A stretch of 64,000 nucleotides of DNA, from contig JAAYVG010000026.1 of the NCBI GenBank assembly GCA_012517285.1, positions 13,408-77,407 on the forward strand, read 5' to 3'. Within the stretch, counting starts at the first letter, position 1; each line of letters begins with the position of its first letter. This stretch comes from Elusimicrobiota bacterium. Lineage in GTDB: Bacteria > Elusimicrobiota > Elusimicrobia > Elusimicrobiales > UBA9959. The translations under genes were made by a program, and so were the position numbers. A model generated the notes under the pieces. The model was not told where the DNA came from and did not search any database. It saw only the letters and a program-made list of their open reading frames with translations. Shown piece after piece: positions 5,430-60,783 of this stretch.

Positions 5430-5490
5430 AATTATCATAAAAACGGTTAAACATCATAAAAAATTTTATCCTTATTTAGGAATAAAAAAA

Positions 5491-5600
5491 GTTCTTTCGT
5501 AATTATTGTGGATATAGTCTTGGATTTAATAGTCCACAATGCTTGTTTTTACTTAACTCTTCTCAAATTCCATACGATCGTGTCAGAATGAAGGAAAACT
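5491..5600 (-). repeat. 110-bp repeat unit, copy B (right arm)
   Basis: Reverse complement of copy A with 3 substitutions. Confidence 0.9.
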
Positions 5601-5788
5601 TAATCATCAATATCTAAAAGATTTAATCATTGTTTAAATAAATAAACATATATGCATTTAAATATTTACCCAAATTTTTCATTTGTAATCAATCTGTGTT
5701 GTTAAATTGAATAATAAAATCATTAAACGATCTGATTGTGAAAAAAAGTAGCAGATAACTGTTTTTGTTCTTGTTATTTTTGCTTCAG

Positions 5789-5831
5789 TCTTCTCAAATT
5801 CCATACGATCGTGTCAGAATGAAGGAAAACT
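5789..5831 (-). repeat. Truncated copy C of the 110-bp unit (outer 43 nt only)
   Basis: 43/43 identical to 5558-5600 and in the same orientation as copy B, 188 bp further on. Confidence 0.9.
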
Positions 5832-5949
5832 ATTTTAAATTTTATATAAATTTTTTATGTATAAAGTTTTAGGTGTCACTGAAGAACTGCAGGTTAATAT
5901 TAAGATTGAGGTTAAGAAGAAAACGACAAATCCCCATCGAAATAGTGAT

Positions 5950-5996: not shown

Positions 5997-6110
5997 CCTG
6001 CCTACCCGCCCACTGCAATGTGTTAAGAAGTTGTAAACCAGCATTAATTTAACACATATAATCCGTCATAATTCCTACCTGCCTGCCGAAGCCGCTTCGG
6101 CGCAGGCAGG
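5997..6110 (+). repeat. Long-form ~110-bp element ending in the GC-rich palindrome (copy X1)
   Basis: Aligns with 54965-55076 (CTGCAATNTGTTAAGNAGTTGTAAACCAGCATTAATTTAACACATNTAATCCG...). The 33-nt palindrome is at 6078-6110. Confidence 0.85.
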
Positions 6111-6112
6111 TT

Positions 6113-6315
6113 GTATTGGATAATTCTTGTATTATCCATTTTCATCTTGATTACATCTGTATTCATCCTGATGAATCCGTTTCTATCCTGATGATTCTTC
6201 TTCCTAAATAACTATCTTCTTGATTTATCCGTCTTCATCTCGATGAATCTGTTTTCATCCCGATTACATCTGTCTTCATCCTGATGATTACATCATGATG
6301 ATTTCATGCGGATGA
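6113..6315. repeat. Array of TCATCNNGATGA-type mini-palindromes (~20-bp period)
   Basis: tcatcttgatta, tcatcctgatga, ctatcctgatga, tcatctcgatga, tcatcccgatta, tcatcctgatga and acatcatgatga, separated by ATCYGTYTT spacers. The array runs up to the stop codon of the O-methyltransferase gene. Confidence 0.85.
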
Positions 6316-6981
6316 TTATTTGATTATTCCAACAGCTATTCCATCTGATGTAGGAATAATAGCCCTGTGTGAAAAACTCTCATCAGTAAAGAGTATGTGA
6401 AGAAATTCTCTCATCCCTCTTGATTTTTTTTGCTGTTCTTTATCATCACTATCGTAGAACAGATTGCCTTTCATCAGTGGATTGTGTGCCAGTATTATCC
6501 CACCACTTCTGATATTTTTTATTGCCCATTTTATATAGAATGGATATTCATCCTTGCTCGCATCCATAAAACAAAAATCAAAAGTTCCTGTCTTTGATAG
6601 CTTGGTTAATGCTTCCTTTGCTTCGCTGTTCATTAGTATTATCTTTCTTTCAAGTCCTAAATCAATAAAAATTCTTGATGCTATCTCGGCATGCTTTGGG
6701 TCTCTTTCAATTGTATAAAGCTTTGAGTTATCGTCAAGTGCCTTTGAGATCCATACCGATGAGTATCCACAGAGTGTTCCAATCTCTACGCCTCTTCTCG
6801 GTTTTATCATAGCAATAAGCATTGATATTATATTCCCTTCAAAGGGGGTTATGTTTATTTTTCTTATATTGTTTTTTTCCATCTCATCCATTACCCTTTT
6901 TAAATAATCATCATCATTGGCTGTATGGGTTATAATATATTCAAGTGTCTTTGTATCAATATTTTGTGGAATTATATTCAT
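6316..6981 (-). CDS. Class I SAM-dependent O-methyltransferase (caffeoyl-CoA OMT-like / YrrM type)
   Basis: SAM motif I VEIGTLCGYSS, FDFCFMDASKDEY, and the overall length are typical of the Methyltransf_3 family. Confidence 0.75.
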   Translation of the reverse strand: MNIIPQNIDTKTLEYIITHTANDDDYLKRVMDEMEKNNIRKINITPFEGNIISMLIAMIKPRRGVEIGTLCGYSSVWISKALDDNSKLYTIERDPKHAEIASRIFIDLGLERKIILMNSEAKEALTKLSKTGTFDFCFMDASKDEYPFYIKWAIKNIRSGGIILAHNPLMKGNLFYDSDDKEQQKKSRGMREFLHILFTDESFSHRAIIPTSDGIAVGIIK

Positions 6982-30678: not shown

Positions 30679-30733
30679 ACCTTCCTTGTTTCCTTTCTAA
30701 AAAACCCTTTAAAAAATAAAAAAATCCACTATA

Positions 30734-30756
30734 ATAGGGTTCACTGAAAAAGTCTA
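30734..30756. repeat. Left arm of perfect 23-bp inverted repeat
   Basis: ATAGGGTTCACTGAAAAAGTCTA is the exact reverse complement of 30994-31016. The match extends to 27 bp with one mismatch. Confidence 0.9.
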
Positions 30757-30993
30757 TTTGAGCAATAAAGCAATGATTTTCGTTATGAGGCGAGGAAGGA
30801 CGAGCGAGCATACTACAAAGTAGTCTGTAAGCGAGTTCTGACGAAGCCGTAGTAGAAAAGCATTATCTTTATTGCCAAAAGAAAGACAAAAAAAGTGCAA
30901 GGTTTTTGAAACATTACCCTAAAAATAGTGCACTTTCAAAACAATAATCTACTATAATCAAGACAATTATTCATTGGAAAAATTATCTTTCGT

Positions 30994-31016
30994 TAGACTT
31001 TTTCAGTGAACCCTAT
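30994..31016. repeat. Right arm of perfect 23-bp inverted repeat
   Basis: TAGACTTTTTCAGTGAACCCTAT. The arms are separated by 237 bp, which contain a further ~20-bp imperfect hairpin (30762-30781 / 30856-30876). Confidence 0.9.
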
Positions 31017-31508
31017 AATATACATTATAGCAGACAAATTGTTTGTAATCAATCTGTATTGCCGGGCAGATTTTATTTCTTAGAGAGCGTAAATGAGCAA
31101 AGCAGTTAAATTGCATAAATAACTAAAAGGAGCATATCCTTGATATGTTCTGCTTTTTCAGTCTGGGATCTCTTCCAGAATAGTAAATAAAGACGCTAAA
31201 AAAGTCTCTGTGGTATAAGCAAAGTGACCGAAGCGGTACTTGGAGTTTAACCCTGTTTTGTAACCATTATGTAGTTTATTAGTTTATTTGTGGAATTTAT
31301 TATCTTTCCCCAGTTTTCATCTTTTCTTGAATAGTCCTTTGAAGAATAAGAAATATTATATTTTTTGTTTATTTTTTTCTTTATTAACTCTTTATACATA
31401 GCCGCCCCCATATATAAATATTATAGAATATAAAATTATAATATACAAAGAGCATTGGTTCTATAGTAAAGTGGGGCATATGACCTATGGTTTTATTTAA
31501 GAACTCTA

Positions 31509-31537
31509 TTGACATTTTAAATTATTGAGTATAAACT
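31509..31537 (+). promoter_or_regulatory. Promoter of pilin operon: TTGACA - 17 nt - TAAACT, 8 nt before ATG 31546
   Basis: Perfect -35 at 31509-31514 and -10 at 31532-37. No SD before 31546. Confidence 0.5.
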
Positions 31538-34580: not shown

Positions 34581-34619
34581 AAATAGTCGTCAGCCATCAG
34601 ACTTACACGATTGGCGGGC

Positions 34620-34753
34620 ACTGATCACTGTTTTGTTTTGCTGATCACTGATCACTGACCACTGTTTTTGTTTTGCTGACCACTGATCACTGACCACTGT
34701 CCACTAATTAAGTTTTGCTGACCACTGATCACTGACCACTGTCCACTAATTAA
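34620..34753 (+). repeat. Tandem repeat built from CACTGAY/CACTGTN heptamers (two perfect 42-bp units plus one shorter variant)
   Basis: 34670-34711 and 34712-34753 are identical (GTTTTGCTGACCACTGATCACTGACCACTGTCCACTAATTAA). The variant unit begins near 34634. The array ends at the AAGGAGG RBS of the PilX-like gene. Confidence 0.9.
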
Positions 34754-34762
34754 GGAGGCGAG

Positions 34763-36199
34763 ATGAGAAAAGGTTTTATTTTGCCAATGTTTGTAAGCAT
34801 AATGGTTATTTTTTTTATAATAGTGCCTGTTATATTAAACTGGGTTAGCGAGGATACAAAGAGTACCGTGAGTGAACAGAAGAAATCTATTGCTTTTAAC
34901 TTAGCAGAGGCTGCTGTTGAAAGGGGATACTGGAAGGTTAAAAGTTCAACCTCTACATTTGAAAGTGTTATTATGGGTGGAACTCTGGTCGGTTATAACT
35001 TTGATACTGTCTATAACGATATTCAGGGTGGAAGCTACAGAATTAAGATATCATCAGGACCACTCTCAAGGCAGGTAACAATAATAGGTGAAGGAAGGGA
35101 TAACTCAACTAAAGAGAAAAGGGCAGTTAAGGTGATTTATCAAAATCAAACAATCACTGGTGCTATGATAAGCGGTTCAAAAATAACGCCAAGTGATAAA
35201 ACAACTTTTCACTGGGGACCAATACTTGGCTGGGGTGAGATAAATCTAAGTGGTGGTGCAGGAAATGTTTATTATCCGAGAAAGTTTTCAAAGCAACTAG
35301 TAAGACCGAGGGATAACAGCTTAAATCCTCCAAATACAGATAATCTGGAGTGGTGGTCTGCCTATGATGTTCCTGAACTTCCTCAGTTTGATTTTGCGAC
35401 TATTCGCTCATCTGCTATGGCAAATGGTACTCTTAACTGTGGTGGATTCAACAATTATATATATCCAAATAGTTCAAATGGATACACGCTTAGCTGTAAC
35501 TGTAGTGGTGACAAAAAAAAATGCTGTGCCGATAGAGATAAGTGTAAGATTAAGAATATATATGCCGATAGAAGATATAACAAGGGGCTTTTGTGGTATT
35601 GGGATCCTGGAAAATCAGTTTATATTGATAACAGCGGGACGAAGGGCTCTTTTTTTGTAAGGGGTGATCTTACGATTAGTGGTGATGACTGCTATGGACC
35701 ATGGTATAAAACAAATGGTTATGACCCTTATGGAGGATATCATACCTGTGCTGGAGGACCTTCTTCTGATACTGGACCTGGTGCGTTGTTTGTAGATGTC
35801 CCAAAGACTGCATACTTGGAGTATCAAAAGATAGATACATCCTTATCAAATCAATATGCTGCCGATTTGGATTTGAGTTCATCAGCTGCGGTATATCAGA
35901 TTGGAGCATGTAATAAATCACATTATTATGACTGTGGTAGTAGCTGCGAAGAAGGTTGTGAAAGAGGGGCAAGTGGTGATGATATTGGGCTTGATGGCTT
36001 TTTATATGTAGGTGGTGTTCTTAAAATAACATCTGCCTTTGATATGTATGGTGCGGTATGGGTTGTTGGAAAGGTTGAAACCACAGGAAGTAATAATGTT
36101 TCTGTATTTTTTAATGAAAACTTAGATCTTCCAACTCTTAATGTAGTGCTTATAAGAAAAAGTTGGGAAGAGATACAACCATCATCTTCAATATGGTAG
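34763..36199 (+). CDS. PilX-N-like pilus-associated protein, Cys-rich
   Basis: AAGGAGG RBS. N-terminal hydrophobic helix (MRKGFILPMFVSIMVIFFII) followed by AFNLAEAAVERGYWKV, which resembles PilX_N. Many Cys in the C-terminal half. Confidence 0.45.
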   Translation: MRKGFILPMFVSIMVIFFIIVPVILNWVSEDTKSTVSEQKKSIAFNLAEAAVERGYWKVKSSTSTFESVIMGGTLVGYNFDTVYNDIQGGSYRIKISSGPLSRQVTIIGEGRDNSTKEKRAVKVIYQNQTITGAMISGSKITPSDKTTFHWGPILGWGEINLSGGAGNVYYPRKFSKQLVRPRDNSLNPPNTDNLEWWSAYDVPELPQFDFATIRSSAMANGTLNCGGFNNYIYPNSSNGYTLSCNCSGDKKKCCADRDKCKIKNIYADRRYNKGLLWYWDPGKSVYIDNSGTKGSFFVRGDLTISGDDCYGPWYKTNGYDPYGGYHTCAGGPSSDTGPGALFVDVPKTAYLEYQKIDTSLSNQYAADLDLSSSAAVYQIGACNKSHYYDCGSSCEEGCERGASGDDIGLDGFLYVGGVLKITSAFDMYGAVWVVGKVETTGSNNVSVFFNENLDLPTLNVVLIRKSWEEIQPSSSIW

Positions 36200-36280
36200 T
36201 TGGAGCACTTGAAAAGTTATCTAGTTGTTTAGTTATCTGGTTGTTTAATGGAAACAGAAGTTAGAACTTGCCTGCCGAAA

Positions 36281-36402
36281 CCTAAATAACTAAACAACCA
36301 GATAACGAGATGACTAAATAACCAATTAGTCCGTTTTCTGTCCCTGCCTGCGCCGAAGCGGCTTCGGCAGGCAGGATCTGACTTCTGACATCTGTCTTCA
36401 TC
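36281..36402 (-). repeat. Composite intergenic element, copy E1 (heptamers / 33-nt GC palindrome / heptamers / mini-palindrome)
   Basis: Its reverse complement aligns with 52885-52998, with 2 substitutions over about the first 100 nt and one heptamer-unit indel. The palindrome is at 36343-36375. Confidence 0.9.
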
Positions 36403-36418
36403 TTGTTGATGTATTTTA

Positions 36419-36424
36419 TATAAT
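36419..36424 (+). promoter_or_regulatory. -10 hexamer TATAAT carried on the repeat end, 10 nt before ATG 36435
   Basis: Part of the shared sequence GATGTATTTTATATAATATACTT. Confidence 0.4.
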
Positions 36425-36434
36425 ATACTTGTGA

Positions 36435-38438
36435 ATGAGAAAAATTTTATTTTTTATAATTCTTTTTTTGCCAACAAAAATTATGTCAGATGATTTTAAT
36501 CCCAGATCTGTAAATTATTTTATAAGCGATGCAAATGCTTTAAATATTATTAAGATAAAAAATCTTAAGAAATCAAGTCTTCCTGATATGATATTTGAGA
36601 CTATAAATCCTAAGAAGGATGCAGAAGTAGAGTTTAATATAAAAGTTCCTTTTTATTTTGATGAGATGATACTTTCGCCATCACCGCTTATATATGACGG
36701 TGATATTATAAAATCAGATGTGATTATAGATGATGATGAGTTCTCTTTTGGAAATTTTTCAATAGGAAAATCTAACAGCATAATAAAGAAAGATTCCCTT
36801 GGTGAGATGGATGTTGACACACTAAGGCTTAATAAAAAGATAAAAGAATTTACTGTTAAAATAAAGATTTTTAACAAATCTGGTAAAAAAACTGGGATAA
36901 AACTTATAAATATTGTGATTACAAACCGTGATAAAAATTTTAGCAACCCTATTCTGCCCGGGATGAGTGATACTGTGATTCTTAGTGTACCTAAGATTTC
37001 ACAGCTGGAGCAGCAGGTAAACTATGCTGGTGATATATGCAGTCCGACATCTCTTTCAATGCTTTTAAACTATTACGGTATTGATGTGTCAACAGTATCC
37101 TGTGCTTCCGATGTAATAGACACATCAAAAAATATCTATGGCAATTGGATCTTTAACACATCCTATGCATCAACTAAAAACTTATATTCATTCATTGTGC
37201 GAATAAACTCATATGATGAGCTTAAAAGATATTTACAAAAGGGAATTCCTGTGATAGCAAGCATAACATTCGGGCCAGATGAACTTAAAAATTCACCCAT
37301 TAAAAAGACAACAGGACATCTCCTTGTGATAAAAGGAATTGATAAAAATGGAAATATAATAACAAATGATCCCGCAGCACTCAACAGTAGCAGGGTTGAG
37401 GTGGTGTATGATAAAAAAGAGTTTGCAAATGCATGGTTTAAAAACAAATATGGAACATCATATATATTGGTTGACGATATATTTAAGCTAATATCCTCAG
37501 CCGTTCCTTATTCAGAGATTAAAAAGGATGACGATGTTCTTACACAGATAACACCTGATGAAGAAATAAGACTTGTTGAAAGAACAGCGGATTCTATTCT
37601 GGTCGAAGCCGTTGAACAGAAGATTGAAGGAAAGGATGGCAAGCCTGAGGGTTATAAAGGTTATATTGATAGATACGGATTTTCGTTACCGAAGAGCTAT
37701 AATGCATTTGTCTCTGAGAAGCTTGCAAAAATATATGATGATAAAAGGATTGAGATTGATAAAACTATTTCAGCAGGAACAAGAATTGATATACTGGATG
37801 ATTATGATAATTTTTTTCTTGCAATGGTTGATAATATGATGTTCTTTATCTCTAAAAAAGATGTTATTACTGATTCTGATCTTCATGACATAAAAGATAC
37901 AGGAAAGGCTGTGATAGAAAAGGCAAGGGATTTCATTGGAACGGTATATTACTGGGGTGGAAGAACATCAGATAAGTTGGATTGTTCAGGGCTTACAAGT
38001 TTAATACATAAAATATATGGATACACAATACCGCGTGATGCAAACGATCAGTTCATATATTCAAAGAAAATAAAAACTTTTAATGAGCTCAAACTGGGGG
38101 ATCTGATATTTTCAACAAAGGAGAACTCTGATTTTGTTGACCATGTGATGCTTTATTCTGGTGATGGCAATATCATTGAGGCGACAAAGGAATGTAATTG
38201 TGTTAGAGAGATACCATTTTTACAGAAGTTTGAAATTGATTTAAAAAATGTAATATATGGCAAAAAAATAAATGGTAAAAAGATATATTTTGGAAGATTC
38301 ATAGATGACAATACACTAAAAGATGATAAGAAATCTGATAAAAAAAATCTTAATAAAAATACAAAAACAAAAATAAAAAAGAGCATTCCAAACAAAACAT
38401 ACAAAAAAACTTCTAAAAAAAACAGGAGTAAAAAATGA
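36435..38438 (+). CDS. Secreted dual-peptidase cell-wall hydrolase: C39-like domain + SH3-like repeats + NlpC/P60 domain, Lys-rich tail
   Basis: VPKISQLEQQVNYAGDICSPTSLSMLLNYYG resembles the peptidase_C39_2 family. C-terminal NlpC/P60 motifs YYWGGRTSDKLDCSGLT...HVMLYSGDGNIIEAT. The last ~60 aa are very Lys-rich. Confidence 0.7.
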   Translation: MRKILFFIILFLPTKIMSDDFNPRSVNYFISDANALNIIKIKNLKKSSLPDMIFETINPKKDAEVEFNIKVPFYFDEMILSPSPLIYDGDIIKSDVIIDDDEFSFGNFSIGKSNSIIKKDSLGEMDVDTLRLNKKIKEFTVKIKIFNKSGKKTGIKLINIVITNRDKNFSNPILPGMSDTVILSVPKISQLEQQVNYAGDICSPTSLSMLLNYYGIDVSTVSCASDVIDTSKNIYGNWIFNTSYASTKNLYSFIVRINSYDELKRYLQKGIPVIASITFGPDELKNSPIKKTTGHLLVIKGIDKNGNIITNDPAALNSSRVEVVYDKKEFANAWFKNKYGTSYILVDDIFKLISSAVPYSEIKKDDDVLTQITPDEEIRLVERTADSILVEAVEQKIEGKDGKPEGYKGYIDRYGFSLPKSYNAFVSEKLAKIYDDKRIEIDKTISAGTRIDILDDYDNFFLAMVDNMMFFISKKDVITDSDLHDIKDTGKAVIEKARDFIGTVYYWGGRTSDKLDCSGLTSLIHKIYGYTIPRDANDQFIYSKKIKTFNELKLGDLIFSTKENSDFVDHVMLYSGDGNIIEATKECNCVREIPFLQKFEIDLKNVIYGKKINGKKIYFGRFIDDNTLKDDKKSDKKNLNKNTKTKIKKSIPNKTYKKTSKKNRSKK

Positions 38439-49877: not shown

Positions 49878-49878
49878 A

Positions 49879-49972
49879 ACAGTGGACAGTGATCAGTGGA
49901 CAGTGGTCAGAAAAGGCAAAAAGCAATAGTGAACAGTGGTCAGTGGACAGTGATCAGTGGACAGTGGACAGA
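49879..49972 (-). repeat. Heptamer array (CAGTGRW on + strand, the complement of the CACTGAY family)
   Basis: cagtggacagtgatcagtggacagtggtcag ... cagtggtcagtggacagtgatcagtggacagtggacag. Same family as 34620-34753 in the opposite orientation. Confidence 0.85.
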
Positions 49973-50032
49973 AAAGATAGTTGTTTAGGAAGAAATAGAG
50001 ATGTAAACATCAAGATTAAGACAGTGATCAAA

Positions 50033-50107
50033 GGTCAGAAGACAGAAATCAGAAAACAGATGTCAGAAGTCAGATGACAGAAAACAGAAGGCAGAAGACA
50101 GAAAGCA
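50033..50107 (+). repeat. Degenerate heptamer array CAGAARN (11 units)
   Basis: cagaaga cagaaat cagaaaa cagatgt cagaagt cagatga cagaaaa cagaagg cagaaga cagaaag. Confidence 0.9.
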
Positions 50108-50154
50108 CGAAACAGGATTTAAGAAGTCAGAAGAATAAAAAGAAATCACTCTTT

Positions 50155-50225
50155 ATCTGACTTCTGTCCATGCCTGCGCCGAAGCGGCTTCGCCATGCTG
50201 GCTCTGTCTTCTGACTTCTGTTTCA
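50155..50225. repeat. Degenerate GC-palindrome copy flanked by CTGACTTCTG heptamers
   Basis: ctgacttctgtcc-atgcctgcgccgaagcggcttcgccatgctgg-ctctgtcttctgacttctg. The outer stem is decayed relative to the other copies. Confidence 0.75.
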
Positions 50226-50236
50226 TGGGAGGTTAT

Positions 50237-52877: not shown

Positions 52878-52884
52878 TAATAGA

Positions 52885-52998
52885 GATGAAGACAGATGTC
52901 AGAAGTCAGATCCTGCCTGCCGAAGCCGCTTCGGCGCAGGCAGGGACAGAAAACGGACTAATTAGTTATTTAGTCATCTCGTTATTTGGTTATTTAGG
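52885..52998 (+). repeat. Composite intergenic element, copy E2
   Basis: gatgaagacagatgtcagaagtcagat + palindrome 52912-52944 + gacagaaaacggactaattagttatttagtcatctcgttatttggttatttagg. Near-identical to the reverse complement of E1. Confidence 0.9.
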
Positions 52999-53037
52999 GG
53001 AACAGGGGAATTAGTCATTTAGTCTGATCAGTAAATT

Positions 53038-53046
53038 TGTTAAAAT
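53038..53046 (+). promoter_or_regulatory. Extended -10 (TGtTAAAAT) 7 nt before ATG 53054
   Basis: Read directly from the sequence. No SD. Confidence 0.45.
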
Positions 53047-53053
53047 ATAGGTT

Positions 53054-53737
53054 ATGAGAATTTTGTTTTTTATGCTGTTTTTTATGATCTGTAATTCGTT
53101 ATCGATTTTTTCGAAGGAAAATGCTGATAATTTTTTGATGGGTGGCGTCGTTAAAAGCGATGTATGGGAGATTGACAGAAAACTTAATCTTGAATATTTT
53201 AATGGTAATGTCTATTTCAAGAATTATTATCATGAGCTTAAAGCAAACAGTGCAGTATATAATCATAATATTCATAAATGGAATGCCCTTGGAAGGGTGT
53301 ATATAAAAAGGAATCTTGACAGTGAATCATATGCTGAAACATTCTGTGATATGGCTGAATATATGGAGGATACTCAGATAGCTAAGATGGATTCAAAGCA
53401 TAAAAAACTTAAATTGATTTATTATACAAATAATGAGGAAGCATATACCGCTTATTCTGTCAAGGCTGTTGTTGAGGCTCTTGATAGAAGGGTTACTTTT
53501 TATGATAAATTTGAACTATATGCATCAAGCATATCTGTTTTCTCTGATAAGGCTGTTTATGATGATTATGAAAAAACATTTGATATGACACTCAATCCTT
53601 ATGCTATGGGCTATGATGAAAAATATGATCTTTATCTTAAGGGTGATGAACTCCTGCTTTTAAAGAATGATGAAACATTGTATGCTTATAACAATGTCTA
53701 TGGTTTGATAAAACCTAGGAAAGAGGATCAGCAATGA
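53054..53737 (+). CDS. LptA/OstA-N-like periplasmic protein
   Basis: Signal peptide. Beta-jellyroll-like repeats of the type L.GNV.F......L.A..A.Y. Immediately upstream of and overlapping lptB. Confidence 0.45.
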   Translation: MRILFFMLFFMICNSLSIFSKENADNFLMGGVVKSDVWEIDRKLNLEYFNGNVYFKNYYHELKANSAVYNHNIHKWNALGRVYIKRNLDSESYAETFCDMAEYMEDTQIAKMDSKHKKLKLIYYTNNEEAYTAYSVKAVVEALDRRVTFYDKFELYASSISVFSDKAVYDDYEKTFDMTLNPYAMGYDEKYDLYLKGDELLLLKNDETLYAYNNVYGLIKPRKEDQQ

Positions 53738-54963: not shown

Positions 54964-54964
54964 T

Positions 54965-55175
54965 GCCTGCCCCCTGCAATCTGTTAAGGAGTTGTAAACC
55001 AGCATTAATTTAACACATGTAATCCGCCATAGTTCCTGCCTGCCAGCCTGCGCCGAAGCGGCTTCGGCAGGCAAGGTCAGAAGACAGAAGACGAAGGACA
55101 GAAAGCAGGAGACAGATAACTAAATAACTAATTTGTCTGTCTTTATCTTGATGATGTATTTTATATAATATACTT
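54965..55175 (+). repeat. Long-form element copy X2 + CAGAAG heptamers + CTAAATAA heptamers + promoter-bearing end
   Basis: The whole 212-bp lptC-like/rfaE1 spacer consists of repeat modules. The palindrome is at 55035-55076. The end GATGTATTTTATATAATATACTT is shared with 36408-36430. Confidence 0.85.
55164..55169 (+). promoter_or_regulatory. -10 hexamer TATAAT carried on the repeat end, 6 nt before ATG 55176
   Basis: Same repeat-borne sequence as at 36419. No SD. Confidence 0.45.
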
Positions 55176-56210
55176 ATGGATAAAATAGATCGAGAATCTC
55201 TCATTAAAACAATCGATGGTTTTAACAACAAAAGAATAGCGGTAATAGGTGATGTCATACTTGATAAATATGTCTTTGGCAAGGTTAGAAGGATATCGCC
55301 TGAGGCGCCTGTGCCTGTGCTTGAAATAGAAAACGAAAAAACAACATTTGGTGGTGCAGGGAATGTCGCCAACAATATATCTGAGCTTGGGGCTAAGTGT
55401 TATCTGGTATCGGTCATAGGCCGTGATGATACAGCCTCCGAGCTTATATCTCTTCTTAATGAAAAAAAGAATATAGATACAGGATATATTGTTCAGAGCA
55501 ATGACCAGAAAACAATAAAAAAAACAAGAATAGTAGCAGAGCACCAGCAGATTGTAAGGGTTGATAGGGAGATAAAATTTTCATACTCACAAAGCATTAA
55601 AAATAAGTTTATATCAAGCATAGATAGTGTGATAAAAAATGGTATTGATGCAATAATACTTTCTGATTACGGTAAAGGTGTTCTTTCAAAGGAGATAATA
55701 AATTATTCAATAGTAGTAGCAAACAAAAACGGGATACCAATCTTTGTTGATCCAAAAATAGAGCATTTTTTCTCATACAAAAAAATAACTTCAATGACCC
55801 CAAATATAATGGAAGCATTTGCTGGTATGAGAATGATTGAGTCAAGAGAACAATCAGATATAGAAAATATTGGTCGTAAAATACTAAGGGAGTTATCACT
55901 TAAATCACTTATAATAACGCAGAGTGAACAAGGTATGACGGTCTTTGATAACTTTAAGAAATCACTTAAGATAACACATATTCCAACCAATGCAAAAGAG
56001 GTATATGATGTCACTGGTGCGGGTGATACTGTTATATCAGTTCTTGCACTTGGCTACTCTGTTTCAAAGGATATTCTTTTGTCATCTGTTATCTCTAACT
56101 ATGCTGCGGGAATAGTAGTTGGTAAATTGGGGACAGCTACAGCGAGTGTGAACGAAATTAAAGAGGCAATAAAAAATGAAAATAGTTACAGTAATACCGG
56201 CAAGGTATAA
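55176..56210 (+). CDS. rfaE1: D-glycero-beta-D-manno-heptose-7-phosphate kinase (RfaE domain I only, PfkB family)
   Basis: IAVIGDVILDKYVFG...RISPEAPVPVL...GGAGNVA and the PfkB motif DVTGAGDTV. No adenylyltransferase domain is attached. Confidence 0.8.
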   Translation: MDKIDRESLIKTIDGFNNKRIAVIGDVILDKYVFGKVRRISPEAPVPVLEIENEKTTFGGAGNVANNISELGAKCYLVSVIGRDDTASELISLLNEKKNIDTGYIVQSNDQKTIKKTRIVAEHQQIVRVDREIKFSYSQSIKNKFISSIDSVIKNGIDAIILSDYGKGVLSKEIINYSIVVANKNGIPIFVDPKIEHFFSYKKITSMTPNIMEAFAGMRMIESREQSDIENIGRKILRELSLKSLIITQSEQGMTVFDNFKKSLKITHIPTNAKEVYDVTGAGDTVISVLALGYSVSKDILLSSVISNYAAGIVVGKLGTATASVNEIKEAIKNENSYSNTGKV

Positions 56211-56974: not shown

Positions 56975-57047
56975 TTCTGACTTCTGATTTCTGTCCCTGC
57001 CTGCGCCGAAGCGGCTTCGGCAGGCAAGTTCTGTTTTCTGTCTTATC
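56975..57047. repeat. GC palindrome copy with flanking TTCTG heptamers between kdsB and pyrG
   Basis: ttctgacttctgatttctgtcc + palindrome 56996-57028 + ttctgttttctgtcttatcc. It ends at the GGAGG RBS of pyrG. Confidence 0.85.
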
Positions 57048-60728: not shown

Positions 60729-60736
60729 TTAAATAG

Positions 60737-60775
60737 AAAACAGACTTCTGACATCTGTCTTCCGACTTCTGTCTT
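60737..60775 (-). repeat. Short heptamer array (complement of CAGAAG family)
   Basis: gaaaacagacttctgacatctgtcttccgacttctgtctt between kdsD and the GT9 gene. Confidence 0.75.
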
Positions 60776-60783
60776 AACATGAT

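Follow-up and report, generated by a model that had tools for sequence, protein, structure and literature searches.

Six sites in the window, by which we mean the whole 64,000-nt stretch of DNA analysed here, carry a GC-rich hairpin of 33 nt, CCTGCCTGCGCCGAAGCGGCTTCGGCAGGCAGG; one copy lies in the spacer 36200-36434, which forms a near-identical inverted pair with a spacer at 52.9 kb. The host belongs to an uncultivated Elusimicrobiota/Elusimicrobiales lineage of ~33% GC represented by metagenome-assembled genomes (MAGs); the assignment comes from exact protein matches (NLH39270.1, MBP7796251.1). We read its intergenic DNA as a mosaic, the 33-mer as a tiny non-autonomous mobile element and the similarity of the two spacers as ectopic gene conversion running from 52.9 kb to 36.3 kb, and we put the probability of this reading as a whole at roughly 60%. 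Three results carry it. Gain and loss affect the 33-mer as an exact unit and leave no duplication, in GC-rich genomes as well as in the host. The spacers form mosaics of tandem arrays that recombine, hence their differences between strains. Finally, the 97% identity between the 36.3-kb and 52.9-kb spacers is due to ectopic gene conversion, in this strain, of a tract of ~48 nt that carries the hairpin. New here are a terminus-defined 33-nt hairpin family with identity across phyla, and the hypervariable heptamer mosaics of an Elusimicrobiota genome.

Results

A repeat search of the window recovers the inverted pair reported in the initial annotation as two arms of 114 nt (composite copies A and B, Table 1), which are 97% complementary with 3 mismatches and zero gaps. 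Stretched out to 36281, the alignment takes one repeat-unit indel, as had been described, but the unit is an octamer, TAAACAAC, present as an extra unit in the 36.3-kb copy, and not a heptamer. The order of modules given there, from GATGAAGAC through CAGATGT/CAGAAGT heptamers and the 33-nt palindrome to GACAGAAAACGGACTAATT and TTATTTAG-type units, holds as well, except that the last block, taken for heptamers, has a period of 8 in Tandem Repeats Finder (TRF). Annotation at both loci confirms that the neighbouring genes are unrelated: those at 36.3 kb are an unannotated 478-aa open reading frame (ORF) and a protein with Peptidase_C39_2 and NlpC/P60 domains, and the 52.9-kb locus has a TPR protein and an unannotated ORF of 227 aa, after which come ABC_tran and LptC-like genes. 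As had been proposed, non-coding DNA has been copied between unrelated loci, with no segmental duplication. Within the window, 6 sites match the central 17-mer of the palindrome (12 strand-matches when up to 2 mismatches are allowed); with 0.00 expected in 100 shuffles, chance is excluded. The six palindrome copies, the repeat-filled spacers and an inverted partial copy in the left part of 36200-36434 had been missed by the initial annotation.

For strain comparison we used same-species metagenomic and MAG contigs at seven spacers (L numbers denote the contigs and loci compared). The spacer 36200-36434 has a length of 235 nt in the window, as against 665 nt in L069/L070, and L072 holds a third allele. 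At 36.3 kb, L069/L070 read TTTTCTGTC^ATCTGACTTCTGACATCTGTCTTCATCTTGTTGATG (the latter begins ATCTGAC), an empty site that corresponds exactly to the 33-mer insertion and continues on the right as in the window. Over its left block of 37 nt the window copy matches L069/L070 at the corresponding locus (6480-6516) with 100% identity, and all 3 mismatches to the 52.9-kb copy fall here; the tract that follows is 100% identical to the 52.9-kb copy and is missing from the L069/L070 allele; and over the right block all three (window allele, L069/L070 allele and 52.9-kb copy) agree at every position. This chimeric structure, the homology blocks that were already in place and the exact empty site indicate ectopic gene conversion between dispersed repeat arrays.

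The hairpin copy at 52.9 kb is seen in every strain examined (window, L021, L022, L076 and L045), no better donor was found in ~350 kb of species DNA, and what other composite copies of the species have in common is limited to sub-blocks of 30-70 nt. We infer that the conversion ran from 52.9 kb to 36.3 kb. Since other strains lack the 36.3-kb version, the similarity is recent, as the initial annotation had it, and mobilisation or gene conversion was the proper pair of alternatives. Its discrete element of ~115 bp, on the other hand, has to be given up, because the 36.3-kb copy is a chimera and the other copies in the species share sub-modules only.

Table 1 Coordinates of repeat features in the window.
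Feature	Position	Strand	Remark
Composite copy A	36290..36403	+	8-mer block, AATTAGTCCG, CTGTC heptamers, 33-mer, CTGAC heptamers, CTTCATCT
Composite copy B, probable donor	52884..52997	-	begins 7 nt past TPR gene stop codon
Inverted partial copy	36215..36279	-	reversed octamers and heptamers; ends in truncated palindrome arm CTTGCCTGCCGAA (36267-36279)
Left homology block, octamers TAAACAAC CAGATAAC GAGATGAC TAAATAAC CAATT	36291..36327	+	three-way alignment
Inferred conversion tract, AGTCCGTTTTCTGTC + 33-mer (48 nt)	36328..36375	+	three-way alignment, BLAST blocks
Right homology block ATCTGACTTCTGACATCTGTCTTCATCT (28 nt)	36376..36403	+	BLAST / three-way alignment
33-mer, canonical (0 mismatches)	36343..36375	+	absent from L069/L070
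33-mer, canonical, partner copy	52912..52944	-	in all strains examined
33-mer, canonical	6078..6110	-	adjoins ~66-75-nt module (6005-6077) and 14-/21-nt arrays (6125-6318)
33-mer, degenerate (4 mismatches)	50169..50201	+	end of long CAGTGNN/CAGAAGN heptamer spacer
33-mer, 2 mismatches	55043..55075	+	opposite-orientation perfect copy in L021/L022/L076
33-mer, 1 mismatch (...GGCAAG subtype)	56996..57028	+	between kdsB-like and pyrG genes
CACTGAY heptamer array	34619..34754	+	182-nt window spacer 34581-34762; 71-nt CTTCTGAC-type array in five other strains
CAGTGNN + CAGAAGN heptamer arrays	49879..50115	+	strain-variable copy number; spacer (49878-50235) 266-482 nt
Heptamer array	60743..60775	+	spacer 60729-60783; window = shortest allele (55 nt)

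The 33-mer has a GC content of 76% in a genome of 33% GC and is laid out as CCTGCCT-GC-GCCGAAG-CGG-CTTCGGC-AGGCAGG: CCTGCCT pairs with AGGCAGG in an outer stem of 7 bp and GCCGAAG with CTTCGGC in an inner stem of 7 bp, the 2-nt bulge between the stems is GC, and the loop is CGG. The fold is predicted at -22.1 kcal/mol on either strand (z about -3.4), and it is the only module with sharp conserved ends. Copies number 6 in 64 kb, and contigs of the same species from one metagenome have at least 34 with the exact core in ~1.5 Mb; host copies are spaced as singletons or as direct-orientation neighbours (75 nt apart in L051, 170 nt in L055). The 42 unique host contexts show mostly 0-1 mismatch and a constant heptamer phase (...CTGWC^33-mer^NNCTG...), and the strand of the hairpin is coupled to that of the heptamers (28:6). 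Measured against flanking genes that run in one direction, hairpin (8:8) and heptamers (7:8) alike show no bias, which speaks against a strand-specific RNA role.

With a length of 11 codons and no stop in any of the six frames, the 33-mer is able to survive inside ORFs. On a contig of the same species (L051 60-5735, Ga0302250_1000090), a 1,891-aa ORF of KS-3xACP-KR-DH type, resembling a polyunsaturated fatty acid (PUFA) or polyketide synthase (PKS), contains six in-frame 33-mers, which together with heptamers encode the inter-ACP linkers (...TEDRKQN-LPAEAASAQAG-AE...); the linker repeat has a 438-nt period at 98% identity. This PKS-like ORF shows the recruitment of non-coding repeat modules as protein linkers.

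Degenerate tandem-unit arrays make up 11 of the 21 spacers of at least 40 nt in the window (spacer listing, TRF). Their units are NNCTGWC heptamers (CAGAAGT/CAGTGAT on the other strand), TAAATAAC-type octamers and CATCYTGATGA-type 14-/21-mers, and the arrays extend from just past a stop codon up to just before the next ribosome-binding site. Between strains the genes are 98-99.7% identical and the alignments break at the spacers, whose length is polymorphic in six of the seven compared, the kdsB-like/pyrG spacer being the sole invariant one. Presence/absence polymorphism among related strains, which the initial annotation had suggested as a check, is seen both at 36.3 kb and at other spacers. 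The spacer 52878-53053 has an extra 96 nt of repeat units in two strains. At 54964-55175 the window, L023 and L025 carry a 66-75-nt module and a plus-orientation palindrome, while L021/L022/L076 have a perfect minus-orientation palindrome right after the stop codon and are 98 nt shorter. At 60.7 kb other strains are longer than the window by 151 nt, to which L076 adds a 75-nt long variant; L022 has an additional, palindrome-only insertion of 33 nt between heptamer units (CATCTGTC^...^TTCTGAC).

Two of these modules have features of their own. The 151-nt insertion (L021 13687-13837, with equivalents in L022, L023 and L024; absent at ~60764 of the window) contains a GGTAAC...GTTACC hairpin and a bulge-less variant of the palindrome, GCCTGCCGAAGYGGCTTTGGCAGGC. 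The AT-rich module of ~66-75 nt (CTGCAATNTGTTAAG...TTAACACATNTAATCCG, with an internal 9-bp inverted repeat) abuts an arm of the 33-mer at 6005-6077, at 54966-55038 and in L029 and L055; at 54966-55038 the window, L023 and L025 have it and L021, L022 and L076 do not. Direct CCTGCC/CCTRCC repeats border the module and give the impression that another small element entered the hairpin arm with a 6-nt duplication.

We then searched for the exact 28-nt core in GTDB contigs (one genome per species) and in metagenomes. The GTDB scan returned 20 loci of GC 0.47-0.63, in Lentisphaerae (13 sites, one MAG), Kiritimatiellae, Victivallales, Verrucomicrobiota, the 'PVC group', Cytophagales and Saccharibacteria, and no cyanobacterial genome was among its matches; ~16 further metagenomes of GC 0.56-0.69 also contain the core, and the contigs reach 1 Mb. 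The foreign copies have unrelated flanks. Each of the 45 foreign hit rows spans this same 33-nt stretch (query 63-95), and 38 begin and end exactly at its limits. The presence of an identical 33-mer in several phyla indicates horizontal spread.

Foreign copies also occur inside genes. In an IS66-family gene (L057; Pfam DDE_Tnp_IS66, 5.8e-39) the 33-mer is in-frame (...KDSHNSH-LPAPKRLRQAG-KPPSSDG...), and its 11 codons are lacking in 22 of the 22 close IS66 homologues examined (80-90% identity). At the DNA level the empty site reads AACAGCCA^CAAGCCGCC (the latter begins CAAGCC), and filled sites are longer by exactly 33 nt, with no target duplication. The 33-mer is also found at the same CPSCH^ codon in three diverged IS91-type (Zn-finger) genes (L010, L047 and L059) and inside a Y2_Tnp gene (L016). 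No target-site duplication was found in any filled/empty pair, and the insertion sites share only a weak preference, R^C, for a purine at -1 (20 of 23 contexts) and C at +1 (19 of 23).

Variants of the element keep the outer stem, the GC bulge and GCCG/CGGC and differ in their interiors. They measure 29 nt (L026), 30 nt (L049) and 33 nt with a changed apex (L074, in the IS66 family at a second site); in a 66-nt form (L003) a different hairpin, also of 33 nt, is nested in the canonical element at GCCGA^AGCGG, and a 75-nt form with a 51-nt AT-rich hairpin occurs in the host species. Paralogous composites of the Lentisphaerae MAG include filled and empty states for a 30-nt hairpin, CCTGCCTG...CAGACAGG, in a loop. 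We also considered that the 33-mer might be the collapsed ends of a longer insertion sequence (IS), and rejected this: the isolated half-arms belong to short variants or nested copies instead of delimiting kb-sized elements, and no long element bounded by isolated half-arms was found.

In two of the foreign hosts the 33-mer is part of a larger repeat. The Lentisphaerae MAG (JACPGM01, L001-L020) has a three-hairpin composite of ~150 nt in which the 33-mer is the middle hairpin; it is closed by GGTAGGG...CCCTACC, a GTAG-type tag, and is itself amplified to at least 13 copies, some of them between rpsP-operon genes. On the Cytophagales contigs L006/L032 (183 kb and 1.09 Mb) the 33-mer is nested, as judged by eye, in a CACGGAT...ATCCGTG hairpin repeat, which seems by the same inspection to break a histidine-kinase catalytic domain just before its IFQPFFTTK...GTGLGLS motif.

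Finally, we searched for a known family, a function and a mobilising gene. The initial annotation had recognised no named family, and our searches agree. Rfam gave 0 matches at gathering thresholds in the window and L021, and at E<=1 over the whole window its sole match was an irrelevant miRNA inside a gene; BLAST against plasmids and phages with the 33-mer and with the whole spacer found no match; viral contigs contain 0 exact matches to the hairpin sequence. A full-text literature search for the 17-mer returned zero papers, and searches on Elusimicrobia repeats and on heptamers/SDRs gave nothing specific. A GTAG/CGTC tag is absent from both strands of the 33-mer and lies within 8 nt of one of its ends in only 5 of 54 unique contexts. 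A terminator or promoter reading was rejected: the hairpin has no T-tract, the terminator scan of 36100-36500 gave 0 sites, and the frequency of promoter-like sites does not exceed that in shuffles. The association with a RAYT or IS200 gene that the initial annotation had proposed to look for was sought, and none was found in ~351 kb of host-species DNA, a weak negative for an incomplete genome. By eye, palindrome pairs bracket an IS3-type-looking element (L029) and what looks like rpsP plus a KH gene (L009).

Several further features were noted around these spacers. A repeat family of ~120 nt (...CTTCTCAAATTCCATACGATCGTGTCAGAATGAAGGAAAACT...) is present at 2722-2841, 5481-5600 and 5774-5833 in both orientations at 90-94% identity, as well as within the alternative 665-nt allele at 36.3 kb (L069/L070 ~6190-6260) and in L072; it has no Rfam match. 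A 55-nt block, TCTGTCTTYATCTTGWTGATGTATTTTATATAATATACTTRTG, is 85% identical between 36391-36445 and 55136-55190, directly 5' of two unrelated genes, a C39/NlpC peptidase and a PfkB kinase, with TATAAT only ~7-10 nt ahead of the start codon; perhaps it is a promoter common to both, giving leaderless or very-short-leader mRNAs. In L023 8-1321 (ENA ERZ27257506) an IS256-type transposase gene (Transposase_mut) lies directly upstream of the homologue of the gene at 53054, in place of the TPR gene and the 52.9-kb spacer. The divergent spacer 30679-31524, unusually long at 846 nt, has no heptamer arrays; an inverted repeat of ~20 nt (GGGTTCACTGAAAAAGTCTA / TAGACTTTTTCAGTGAACCC), ~250 nt apart, surrounds a GC-richer segment in it, and the spacer has no Rfam match.

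Comparison with known repeat families

The closest behavioural parallel is offered by the cyanobacterial small dispersed repeats (SDRs). Elhai et al. (2008, Genome Res 18:1484) reportedly described SDR1-8 as elements of 21-27 nt, several of them hairpins, that often lie in tandem heptamers or minitransposons; these are said to show nested insertions, to have been proposed as the smallest mobile elements and to be confined to one cyanobacterial subgroup, the heterocystous forms with their relatives. Compared by description only, the 33-mer is like them in being embedded in heptamers, in nesting (33-in-33, L003) and in its filled and empty sites, and unlike them in length and host phylum, apparently in sequence, in crossing phyla and in lying in-frame in ORFs. 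The cyanobacterial STRR sequences are tandem degenerate heptamers in intergenic DNA, and in the host, too, tandem degenerate heptamers fill the intergenic DNA. The host arrays differ, however, in their unit (NNCTGWC), in their phylum (Elusimicrobiota), in the octamer and 14-mer arrays alongside and in being read as protein linkers.

Rickettsia palindromic elements (RPEs) measure ~100-150 bp and are known only from Rickettsia, whereas the 33-mer has only 33 nt and occurs in many phyla. The two are alike in that RPEs are inserted in-frame in genes that remain open (PMC3733652), as the 33-mer is in IS66, IS91 and PKS-like ORFs.

REP sequences (repetitive extragenic palindromes; Escherichia, Pseudomonas, Stenotrophomonas and others) and bacterial interspersed mosaic elements (BIMEs) are GC-rich imperfect palindromes of 20-40 bp, with many copies, mostly intergenic and in mosaic clusters (PMC3184786; PMC3733652). 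Some are intragenic or nested in other palindromes, and they show no target duplication (PMC3733652; PMC3184786). With its 33 nt, 76% GC, stem-bulge-stem-loop structure, multiple copies and mainly extragenic position the 33-mer resembles them. REP super-families, however, carry an unpaired GTAG or CGTC tag at one end (Di Nocera 2013), and REPIN/RAYT systems, in which REPINs pair two inverted REPs across a short spacer and the RAYT (HUH Y1) gene typically has REPs on its flanks, are described as vertically inherited; the 33-mer has no such tag, forms no REPIN doublets and is not restricted to a lineage, and it is set in tandem heptamers and not paired with other REPs.

The hairpin elements of IS200/IS605 type (PATEs), which insert 3' of a fixed tetra- or pentanucleotide, and other HUH-mobilised DNA are by analogy similar, as they too would combine an imperfect hairpin having extrahelical bases with duplication-free insertion. 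The 33-mer differs in being a single symmetric hairpin with no distinct left and right ends and with a weak R^C flank preference, and no TnpA was found in the partial host data (351 kb). Its arms are inverted repeats as in miniature inverted-repeat transposable elements (MITEs), but there is no duplication, and its length is only 33 nt as against 70-300 bp. Finally, it is unlike an intrinsic terminator in not being oriented with transcription, and unlike the Rfam RNA families in giving no covariance-model match.

Discussion

Our results point to three processes. The spacer arrays of heptamers, octamers and 14-mers recombine with one another and so generate the differences between close strains. 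Into these arrays the 33-mer would be placed as a discrete, very small and non-autonomous mobile insertion with no target-site duplication, recognised through its stem-bulge termini and probably as single-stranded DNA. The absence of duplication, the conserved bulge or extrahelical bases and the weak R^C preference make a trans-acting HUH-type enzyme that recognises single-strand hairpins, RAYT- or IS200-like, our best guess for the mover; an RNA-mediated route, like that proposed for the cyanobacterial SDRs, would be an alternative. Between phyla the 33-mer may plausibly have spread as a passenger in IS66/IS91 elements. In the AT-rich host most of its amplification perhaps came from homologous exchange between the heptamer arrays, the CTGWC units of which are similar to the CTGCC arms of the 33-mer. 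In the third process a hairpin tract of ~48 nt was copied, most probably out of the 52.9-kb spacer, into that at 36.3 kb, where the homology blocks on either side already existed.

A number of points weigh against this reading. All host cases of presence and absence lie within heptamer arrays, and homologous recombination alone could explain them with no true transposition, clean insertion being shown only in GC-rich genomes. The apparent lack of divergence among the foreign copies is partly a matter of design, because the search pattern was an exact 28-nt string, and the taxonomy of the MAGs was taken as deposited. The preference for an insertion site is weak. A position always at the apex of a larger hairpin was considered and rejected, as it applies to 7 of 21 contexts and is not significant (152 of 1000 permutations). 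Nor was a mobilising gene found in the host DNA searched: tblastn with an IS200-like query gave no match in 351 kb of the incomplete genome, which carries little weight, and a REPtron geometry was rejected, since the genes bracketed by palindrome pairs in L029 and L009 do not look, by eye, like Y1 transposases. As for the conversion, the ancestral allele at 36.3 kb cannot be fixed from six strains.

Among other explanations, an ordinary lineage-specific REP/BIME, inherited vertically and dependent on a single-copy RAYT (HUH Y1) elsewhere in the genome, with foreign copies that are unrelated or contaminants, would account for the size, GC-richness, imperfect palindrome, intergenic site, copy number and mosaic clusters (PMC3184786; PMC3733652). 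Intragenic and palindrome-nested REPs are known (PMC3733652), and the absence of duplication fits HUH chemistry. We nevertheless regard this explanation as unlikely: a GTAG/CGTC tag is missing in or beside the 33-mer, there are no inverted doublets of REPIN type, and the lack of a RAYT in 351 kb of host DNA points weakly in the same direction. A vertical, lineage-specific REP also fits poorly with the presence of the identical 33-mer, its ends for the most part unchanged, in no fewer than five further groups of phylum rank (contigs of up to 1 Mb, GC 0.47-0.69). Conservation by function, as a cis-acting RNA or DNA signal (terminator, 3'-end stabiliser, protein-binding site or small RNA), would suit a hairpin so stable on either strand that sits between co-directional genes, just past stop codons and ahead of ribosome-binding sites. 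It is made improbable by the terminator and Rfam results, by the unbiased orientation with respect to transcription, by the variation in presence, absence and orientation among near-identical strains and by the copies that are read through as protein.

That a MITE-like discrete element of ~115 bp transposed whole between the spacers is suggested by the 97% identity over 114 nt between unrelated loci and by a similar module order in other spacers of the species (L053, L068, L027, L036 and L061). The chimeric 36.3-kb copy, whose left 37 nt belong to the resident allele, has largely refuted this account: the ends of the 114 nt have neither terminal inverted repeats nor a target duplication and fall on repeat arrays common to the empty allele, and sub-blocks of 30-70 nt are all that other copies share. 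We consider it very improbable. An assembly or sequencing artefact in the form of an adaptor-like hairpin, which might be thought of for a short, GC-rich and perfect-looking hairpin in many unrelated metagenome assemblies, is hardly credible, given that the same copies stand at the same loci in independent JGI, ENA, NCBI and Logan assemblies, that the 33-mer is shorter than assembler k-mers, and that there are diverged and degenerate copies as well as in-frame copies in long ORFs.

Beyond mosaic, mobile 33-mer and conversion, we tentatively propose, at somewhat less than even odds, a family of bulged hairpins of ~30-33 nt that would be defined only by their termini (CCTGCCT, GC bulge, GCCG...CGGC and AGGCAGG). 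Such a family would be shared horizontally by at least six phyla, insert without duplication at R^C in ORFs and in other or related hairpins, be compatible with coding and tolerate interiors of 3-51 nt. If this is true, it would be the smallest cross-phylum mobile DNA described, and the heptamer arrays of Elusimicrobiota would be its preferred landing pad and amplifier.

For the host lineage, mosaics of 7- and 8-nt units imply that intergenic DNA turns over far faster than genes (six of seven spacers polymorphic at ~99% gene identity). Such spacers are a source of assembly and annotation errors, and they would serve as sensitive strain markers for this uncultivated Elusimicrobiota lineage. More generally, short palindromic repeats (REPs) are usually held to be lineage-specific, vertically inherited and dependent on a resident RAYT, and here an exact-ended hairpin of 33 nt crosses phyla. 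This raises the question of what is the minimum DNA able to move between and within genomes, and of which enzyme recognises a 7-bp stem with a 2-nt bulge.

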